Shown: in pieces, positions 39,118 through 39,508 of the stretch
How positions within the stretch are numbered: position 1 is the stretch's first letter
Layout: each line of letters opens with the position of its first letter
NCBI GenBank assembly: GCA_963713615.1
Contig: CAVQMM010000001.1
Location: 416,001-480,000, forward strand
Direction of reading: 5' to 3'
Origin: an uncultured Chlamydiae bacterium
GTDB taxonomy: Bacteria; Chlamydiota; Chlamydiia; Chlamydiales; JAJFMA01
Length of the DNA stretch: 64,000 bases
Program-made: the position numbers and the translations under genes
Notes under the pieces: generated by a model
The model's input: the letters and a program-made list of their open reading frames with translations, nothing else
Databases searched by the model: none
Told to the model about the DNA's origin: nothing

Positions 39118-39508
39118 GGAGAGGAAGGAGGATTAGGATTTTTTACCGCCGAGGCGCCGAGACACCGATATAGGAGAGAGAGGATTTAGGAGAGAATGTC
39201 CCGTTTCTTGCTCAGTGCAAAGTCCTGTCTGAGAGCCCCGCACCATAAGCTCAGACAGAACTTTGTACAGAGCAAGAAACGGGACCGGTCCTCAATTTAG
39301 CAAAAAAAGGTTAGATTGAGCTTCTGACCTATTTGTGGGGCCTTAGACAAAATTTACTCTAAGGATTTTGACGAAGGATAACCTTACAGAGTTCCTTAGA
39401 ATGAATTTTGTCTAAGGCCCCACAAATAGGTCATTCTCTTCTCTCTGTCCTAAAATCTCTGTGCTCTCTGTGTCCTCTGTGGTTAAATCCTAATCCTCTC
39501 TTCCTCTT
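39118..39508. repeat. Mosaic repeat: inverted REP-like leaders enclosing two hairpin cassettes (39198-39285, 39325-39433)
   Basis: Left leader and reverse-complement right leader (CTCTGTGTCCTCTGTGGTTAAATCCTAATCC); two long near-perfect palindromes. Confidence 0.8.

Follow-up and report, generated by a model that had tools for sequence, protein, structure and literature searches.

A predicted cloverleaf repeat of an uncultured Chlamydiae bacterium and its probable relation to a GxxExxY gene cassette

Architecture of the Repeat

The stretch of DNA analysed here, termed the window, comprises 64,000 nucleotides and corresponds to G000:C1:416001-480000 of the 3.97-Mb source genome (G000), in which an OmcB-like match below cut-off is consistent with an environmental chlamydia. 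Long palindromes are clustered at 39 kb and at 48 kb, a half copy is situated at 4.9 kb (about 4937-4990), and a leader sequence precedes the palindromes or stands alone (Table 1). The four palindromes of the original prediction are all confirmed, with arms that are 92-95% complementary. By eye, the leader consensus starts TTTAGGATTTTTACC and the hairpin arms start with TG; the hairpins end with CA. The left leader of the 39-kb copy is built of ACC-CCGAG units of 9-base period, followed by a purine tail that ends GGAGAGAAT, and the leader preceding position 4942 ends GGAAAGAATG.

Table 1. Leaders, hairpins and linkers of the repeat in the window
Feature	Position	Strand	Remarks
Left leader	39128..39197	+	Assigned to the GxxExxY-type arm repeat; leader HMM match
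Hairpin B	39198..39285	-	88 bp; arms 36 nt, 92% complementary; loop cut to 16 nt
Linker, a small central hairpin	39286..39324	-	Stem 39291-39320; motif also in sister species G001
Hairpin A	39325..39433	-	109 bp; arms 41 nt, 95% complementary
Right leader, inverted	39434..39498	-	Predicted pairing with left leader, closing the cloverleaf
Leader of second copy, opposite orientation	48060..48122	+	
Hairpin A, young amplified subfamily	48123..48233	+	111 bp; arms 42 nt, 95% complementary
Linker, short form	48234..48261	+	Right half of central stem deleted
Hairpin B	48262..48367	+	Perfect part 48267-48367, arms 41 nt, 93% complementary; copy truncated here, without right leader
Truncated copy	4846..4990	+	Doubled leader, followed by a single B arm with a portion of its loop
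Lone leader ending GGAGAGAATG	29654..29712	+	Without hairpin
Lone leader	31540..31580	+	Followed by group II intron 5' fragment
Lone leader	43239..43286	-	Interior remnant AT-rich/ATGGAC-type

The full unit of ~360 bp reads leader, hairpin A, central hairpin, hairpin B and inverted leader. The 39-kb copy is complete and runs B-first; the 48-kb copy runs A-first and has no right leader. Parts of the earlier description had to be amended. The leader precedes the hairpins as described, but it also closes the 39-kb unit in inverted orientation, which had been missed. The linker does separate the hairpins, but is itself a hairpin, and its opposite orientation at 39.3 and 48.25 kb, although real, comes from simple reversal of the whole unit.

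Both clusters fold with z-scores of -14.9 and -14.8 against 100 dinucleotide shuffles, none of which folded as well. A cloverleaf fold, consisting of an outer stem, two long hairpins and the central hairpin, was recovered by a strict script in 11 of 16 complete loci and, with a shortened hairpin A, in two further loci, while the remaining three were not settled by the script. The unit is accordingly described as a predicted four-way cloverleaf. Its outer ends are ragged, with mirror symmetry extending 0-105 bp (median 21) beyond the leader, and the two leaders within a unit match each other weakly, the own partner being the best match in 10 of 57 cases.

Two functional readings of the parts were considered and rejected. 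The linker has a likeness to dif/attC-like tyrosine-recombinase sites; such a site is ruled out by the lack of two inverted boxes at a fixed spacing of 6-8 bases, as the box spacing varies, the commonest form has lost the right box and the spacing in G001 is much shorter. The leader ends in an RBS-like word and ATG, and a leader peptide is ruled out as the frames differ between A and B (by eye). A 289-aa ORF that begins at 4936 opens inside a leader; its true start probably lies downstream, because its GNAT domain begins only at residue 83.

We also note other features of the window. A 160-bp palindromic family is present at 48535-48698 and 19987-20150, and near-identical copies elsewhere lie in hairpin A or beside leaders. 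Five tandem copies of a 473-bp composite palindrome (60459-62960) are located just past the 5S rRNA gene, with kin at 16.9 and 53.9 kb. IS66-family transposase genes lie between two halves of this composite palindrome family at 17511-19719, and a 3619-aa ORF on the minus strand (5802-16661) has a DUF3638 match and a weak helicase-like match.

Copies in the Genome and the Fixed Order of Slots

The leader HMM gave 255 matches in the genome, 92 as inward-facing pairs, and none in a shuffled chromosome. A profile of the hairpin arms gave 167 matches (152 at E under 0.01) against one in the shuffle, and nine of the 167 lie more than 200 bp from any leader match. Three of these nine are weak, four belong to cassettes whose leader was missed or falls just past the limit, and the last two form one truly leaderless hairpin. 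Merging yielded 63 cassette loci and a further 134 with a leader alone. None of the cassettes falls inside an ORF (0/63) when ORFs are called crudely; 26 of the 63 stand between divergent genes, against 453 of 1626 gaps in the background, and 11 between convergent genes, which is no excess over the background of 286/1626.

With the 43 linkers as anchors, 33 A and 25 B hairpins were collected, and 42 of the linkers are near a leader. Slot A holds A-type hairpins in 30 of 33 cases and slot B holds B-type hairpins in 24 of 25, with no swap among the 58, and a unit never has more than two large hairpins. A1 with B0 is the commonest pairing; rarer ones also occur, such as A2 with three B types. Shorter forms comprise inserts of ~135 bp whose two arms are of different type, one A and one B, and units in which a loop is deleted; these forms account for the apparent "mosaics". 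The proposal of free mosaics of independent cassettes is thus not upheld: the order is fixed, hairpins almost never occur without a leader, and the mosaics appear to be deletions and crossovers within one unit.

A young subfamily of 11 A and 14 B near-identical hairpins indicates, from their sequences, that one hairpin subfamily is a recent amplification. No target-site duplication above the null was found in 39 pairs, for which the end positions come from alignment and carry some uncertainty; with ragged ends and no duplication, the moving unit has no sharp boundaries. Four metagenome runs yielded short pieces with no contig across an element, and a single low-depth joint of 48118 to 48310 (side 30) is not diagnostic amid the many copies. 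Neither excision nor circles nor presence/absence between strains was observed.

Group II intron fragments are found inside or behind leader-bounded hairpins, at 31580-32000 of the window and at G000:C1:1197429-1198336 and 1256732-1257500, which suggests that these introns target leader-bounded repeats.

Covariation of the Hairpin Arms

The hairpins had been predicted to share an inner core, and this is borne out by 151 matches in the genome (at most three substitutions) versus seven in a block-shuffled chromosome. Among the five copies of the window, the core similarity of eight of ten arm pairs was equalled by at most 5 of 2000 shuffles; one of the two remaining pairs is borderline (31/2000) and the other, 39198 versus 39325, is not significant (1991/2000). 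The core is more conserved (82% pairwise) than the outer arms (72% and 53%) and loops (39% and 54%), and the assignment of the hairpins to one family is supported. Loop A does not discriminate between the reverse complement of loop B (0.437) and its forward strand (0.427); the outer arms of A and B agree at 0.49 versus 0.40 when shuffled. On the basis of outer arms and core, we infer that A and B may go back to a single hairpin by way of an inverted duplication.

Across 22 hairpin clusters, agreement is 95% between the arms within a hairpin, 72% between copies of the same type and 61% between A and B, and 42 of 44 arms match their own partner best. Compensatory change between the arms, also anticipated in the original prediction, was examined in seven of the 33 A hairpins, picked because they were divergent and available. 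Both sides are altered in 16 of 40 pairs (0 of 500 shuffles), one-sided changes affect 4 of 40, and slid controls are 26-48% paired.

Several features bear on how such matching arises. Among 26 young copies, 15 variant columns, including a 3-base deletion, are mirrored in both arms versus 45 that are confined to one arm. Arm length up to the core varies among copies, in part through trimming by the script, yet the two sides agree in 50 of 52 hairpins, and two of the 14 A-type representatives show a flipped loop. Fixed mismatches are found in the stems of the amplified subfamily, the core stem included; perfect pairing is therefore not needed for spread. Among the mismatches counted in the hairpin clusters, 6 are G-T and 12 A-C, and G-T is not favoured on a consistent strand. 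Template switching is described as a cause of arm homogenisation and spacer inversion (PMC5941160, PMC8604942), and template switching is also what probably keeps the present arms matched. The covariation is read as mostly mutational, and not as stepwise or protein-driven selection, because of the mirrored changes, the flipped loops and the fixed mismatches in a subfamily that spreads.

The alternative of independent hairpin cassettes, each recognised at the core by one protein, with selection driving the compensation and free assembly into mosaics, is improbable. The conservation of the core above outer arms and loops and a covariation far beyond that of shuffles agree with it, as do the rare pairings; the slots are fixed, however, the amplified subfamily spreads in spite of its core-stem mismatches, and the mirrored indels and flipped loops are what copying from one arm to the other would leave. 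Moreover, the cloverleaf of the sister species, described below, is devoid of the core. Judged from these sequences, the core cannot be the general recognition site of the system, because that cloverleaf exists without it; the higher conservation of the core may reflect a binding site or may be maintained through crossover of A with B.

A further possibility is that the unit is retained as a regulatory or structured RNA, such as a terminator, attenuator or small RNA, with G-U-tolerant selection accounting for the covariation. The very stable fold and the RBS-like word with ATG at the leader end are compatible with such an RNA, and the Bacillus repeat bcr1, a cruciform, is transcribed and shows compensatory changes (PMC3184786). 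Nevertheless, no Rfam family reaches its gathering score at the locus, where sub-threshold generic hairpin models alone are hit, the focal copy is devoid of a terminator-like site, and cassettes are not enriched in convergent gaps. The sites are not conserved among relatives, and neither the rarity of one-sided changes nor the G-T mismatches without consistent-strand preference point to an RNA, which makes this explanation very improbable. Copying between the arms remains our preferred account of the covariation.

The GxxExxY Gene Cassette

The same repeat as the leader flanks a GxxExxY gene (L007; G000:C1:1855144-1855536) on both sides, at 60 and 95 bp, and by its sequence the leader very probably belongs to the family of the GxxExxY arms. 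Leaders are present at this gene copy and the A and B hairpins are absent. The region upstream of the gene (L007 1406-1470) weakly resembles the linker (17 of 1000 shuffles), and at L030 the stretch from leader to start codon is weakly linker-like (9 of 300 shuffles). The linker may, by this resemblance, derive from the upstream region of a GxxExxY gene.

Of 2928 ORFs, eight have inward-facing leaders on both sides within 250 bp. By their sequences, five of them are frames in other repeats or in an intron fragment, a sixth is situated between two distinct elements, and the last two are a 211-aa ORF and the GxxExxY gene. The 211-aa ORF is hydrophobic, lies inside its inward leader pair at G000:C1:1863007-1864009, and is possibly captured cargo. 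Bracketing of GxxExxY genes was counted in 27 loci across the order. Where both flanks are readable, inward repeats of this type are seen on both sides in 11 of 24 loci and on either side in 19 of 24, compared with 8 of 845 short ORFs and none of 30 shifted windows, in a count whose pattern was written after the flanks had been viewed and whose kin are not independent.

Genome-wide, six Y1-type (PF01797) and two PF13366 matches were found. No leader or arm lies within 1.5 kb of any of the six PF01797 loci, and the nearest leader is at least 4 kb away. Each of four Y1/RAYT-type genes (L001, L002, L003 and L006) is flanked by a palindrome family peculiar to it; two of the four families provide the commonest 16-mers of the genome (up to 339 and 256 copies) and are nested within leader pairs. 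The leader profile has no match at the second GxxExxY locus, which has a repeat of its own: the gene (L008; G000:C1:1921790-1922125) lies between inverted tandem arrays of another unit (ACACGGATGCACACGGAT) with a period of ~68-73 bp. A second system of small gene plus repeat is also present, in which genes of the four-helix-bundle-suffix type (TIGR04258; L130, G000:C1:1850781-1851365, and L131, C1:3217619-3218185) each lie between inverted ATGGAC/GTCCAT tandem repeats; gene-less copies of these repeats fill many leader pairs.

The L007 protein matches TIGR04256 and PF13366 with 148 and 142 bits, above cut-off. E32, D72, E82 and K84 are invariant across 74 sequences, and the GxxExxY and D...ExK residues are intact in the L007 protein. 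An alignment-based model (pLDDT 94) has a PD-(D/E)xK fold, while single-sequence folding gives a pLDDT of 34. In structure comparison, the best Z of 7.8 is shared by BpuSI, Cas4 and a protein of DUF820-like type, and Holliday-junction resolvases are near (Hjc, 6.5); Foldseek with the GxxExxY model returned no match at E 0.001 or better. The modelled fold is thus restriction-endonuclease-like, which speaks to fold and not to function. With 20,762 representatives at an E value of 0.001 or lower, PF13366/GxxExxY is a very large family, and its function is given as "Unknown" (PMC3424549). A literature search, with subscription papers and supplements outside its reach, found nothing that links GxxExxY, TIGR04256, PDDEXK_3 or PF13366 to repeats.

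Occurrence in Related Genomes

Of 40 relatives, only G001, a species of the same genus, matched repeatedly. Its elements have the same cloverleaf of outer stem, two hairpins and central hairpin; the hairpins are shorter and different, a related central module occurs under two leader types, and the inner core is absent. Each side of the GxxExxY gene of G001 (L039) bears a leader, a hairpin and the central module. Five of six cassette or upstream stretches of G001 carry the central module at no more than 7 of 300 shuffles, and one fails. The central motif, a pattern derived from the two genomes of this genus, is found in these two of 401 genomes of the phylum. PF13366 is present in 21 of 41 relatives and this cloverleaf in G001 alone, while G002 and G003 have leader pairs that enclose other interiors.

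Twenty-one element loci of the relatives were tested in G000, of which 11 are syntenic and 10 are not. Nine of the syntenic sites are empty, one holds a lone leader, at the site of the gene cassette of G003, and one holds a leader pair with another interior. The gap between the iolC-like gene and bioY, which houses the 39-kb copy, is free of the element in G001. Exact empty sites are not definable in these comparisons, in which the intergenic DNA of the relatives is too diverged for alignment. The family appears from these sequences to have moved, or to have been gained and lost, since the species split, because its sites are lineage-specific.

In the wider collections, the metagenome scan gave no exact linker and nine matches to the shared central motif, none with hairpin context. 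The core hairpin has no match in the genome collection, and none was found among viral contigs or plasmids; records very close to this genome may be absent from these sets. The central motif has 16 matches in the genome collection, of which three are G001-type cassettes (L134, L137, L138) and 13 are without the leader word. A partial match in G005 was rejected as a lone 32-base stretch with no cassette.

G017 has 67 PF13366 hits. In that genome, a complete GxxExxY gene and its arms travel as passengers of an IS5-family element of 1.4 kb, in copies that are 98-99.5% identical (L123-L126, L046, L031). These 67 hits are ruled out as proof of self-mobility: an IS5-family transposase accompanies each of the four full copies that were compared, and the high copy number is owed to this carrier.

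Contig ends of G001 bear six identical IS-end-like sequences, of which four adjoin cassette or leader DNA (L152, L154, L155, L156). A related end precedes an OrfA that is, by its sequence, of IS3 type, and this IS seems to target the cloverleaf. IS3-type ends start with TG and end with CA. The hairpins have the same termini, and each could be regarded as a MITE in which both ends of a DDE insertion sequence have become fused, the more so as IS3-like ends adjoin cassettes in G001. Those ends are, however, a different sequence inserted into the cassettes. The original prediction had itself named an origin of the hairpins from ends of known insertion sequences as the finding that would speak against it; no transposase gene flanked by the arms was found in this genome, nor in the genome, viral and plasmid collections, and the 39 pairs gave no target duplication above chance. 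The fused-end reading is largely refuted and extremely improbable.

The interior of the unit (A, linker and B) could also be a separate REPIN-like family, with an enzyme gene that is lost or unrecognised, which came to lie inside a shell of GxxExxY type and has since been copied along with that shell. Leader pairs enclose families whose partner genes are present, both those of RAYT type (L003, L006) and the repeats of the four-helix-bundle genes (L130, L131), a REP-sized palindrome is found within each arm, and the two leader types of G001 share one interior. Insertion of REPIN into REPIN is known (PMC3116915). Such an origin is conceivable though unlikely: only the nine of 167 arm matches noted above lie away from leaders, with a single truly leaderless hairpin, all but one of the linkers are near a leader and no arm is near Y1 genes. 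In addition, the interior modules of G001 flank the GxxExxY gene itself, and the core pattern is missing from the genome and viral collections.

Comparison with Known Repeat Systems

No named element with this architecture was found, as the original prediction had held, and literature on REP and Chlamydiae or on MITEs and environmental chlamydiae yielded nothing on this element. Among the closest parallels is REPIN/RAYT, in which inverted pairs of short repeats form hairpins and lie between genes, many copies are gene-less, one gene-bearing locus is flanked by the repeat, and repeats are nested in repeats; CGTC-3 dimers of A. tumefaciens hold two small stem-loops in the spacer (PMC3116915, PMC3733652). 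The present partner, in contrast, is a GxxExxY protein of PD-(D/E)xK fold and not a Y1 enzyme, the arms are purine-rich with 9-base period and carry no GTAG/CGTC tag (by eye), and the interior consists of two hairpins with 40-bp arms and a central one in fixed order.

BIMEs are likewise composites of palindromes and conserved linkers and a target for IS elements (PMC3116915, PMC3333891). Here, however, an outer inverted pair closes the unit and there is no open tandem alternation, order and number are fixed, the building blocks are not REPs of the E. coli type, and a Y1 partner is lacking. The bcr1 repeat of Bacillus is dispersed at positions that are not conserved, and is cruciform-like with two stem-loops and compensatory changes; it differs in its 5-bp flanking direct repeats and its transcription (PMC3184786), whereas the present repeat has no duplication that we could find and has a candidate nuclease as partner. 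MITEs of DDE insertion sequences share the non-coding nature, the size of 150-400 bp, terminal inverted repeats and a stable fold (PMC3184786), but target duplication is absent here, the ends are ragged, and there is no transposase with matching ends. The repeat works like a REPIN or BIME but falls outside the RAYT, tag and MITE criteria.

Proposed Mechanism and Implications

We favour, with some reserve, the explanation that the ~360-bp repeat is a gene-less (non-autonomous) derivative of a GxxExxY cassette, spread in REPIN fashion by GxxExxY acting in trans. It is taken as a gene-less passenger because its inverted ends match those that bracket the GxxExxY gene. Whether its spread requires GxxExxY activity is evenly balanced. 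Leader pairs elsewhere in the genome often enclose repeats of other genes, and foreign nesting is common. In the proposed course of events, one hairpin would have been duplicated and inverted to give A and B. Template switching during replication would copy one arm onto the other and could flip the loop, and deletion and crossover at the shared core would produce the shorter "mosaic" copies. The candidate nuclease would nick the outer arms, and repair would copy the folded unit into new gene-free sites.

A more far-reaching and quite unlikely version holds that GxxExxY proteins are mobilisers of an undescribed repeat class, the substrate in this genus being a single-stranded four-way cloverleaf. 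The nuclease would then read the outer arms or the conserved central hairpin and cut the junction, with the cloverleaf as transposition intermediate, and the cloverleaf shape rather than its sequence would be kept across species.

Irrespective of the enzyme, the family provides a natural record of arm-to-arm copying, in which copies that are ~30% different have near-perfect stems, and strong covariation need not imply a selected RNA structure. Under the favoured explanation of a gene-less GxxExxY derivative, a defined multi-copy natural DNA partner would make the function of GxxExxY directly testable. If the protein does move repeats, REPIN-like parasitism would have arisen with a PD-(D/E)xK enzyme, and not with a Y1 or DDE transposase.
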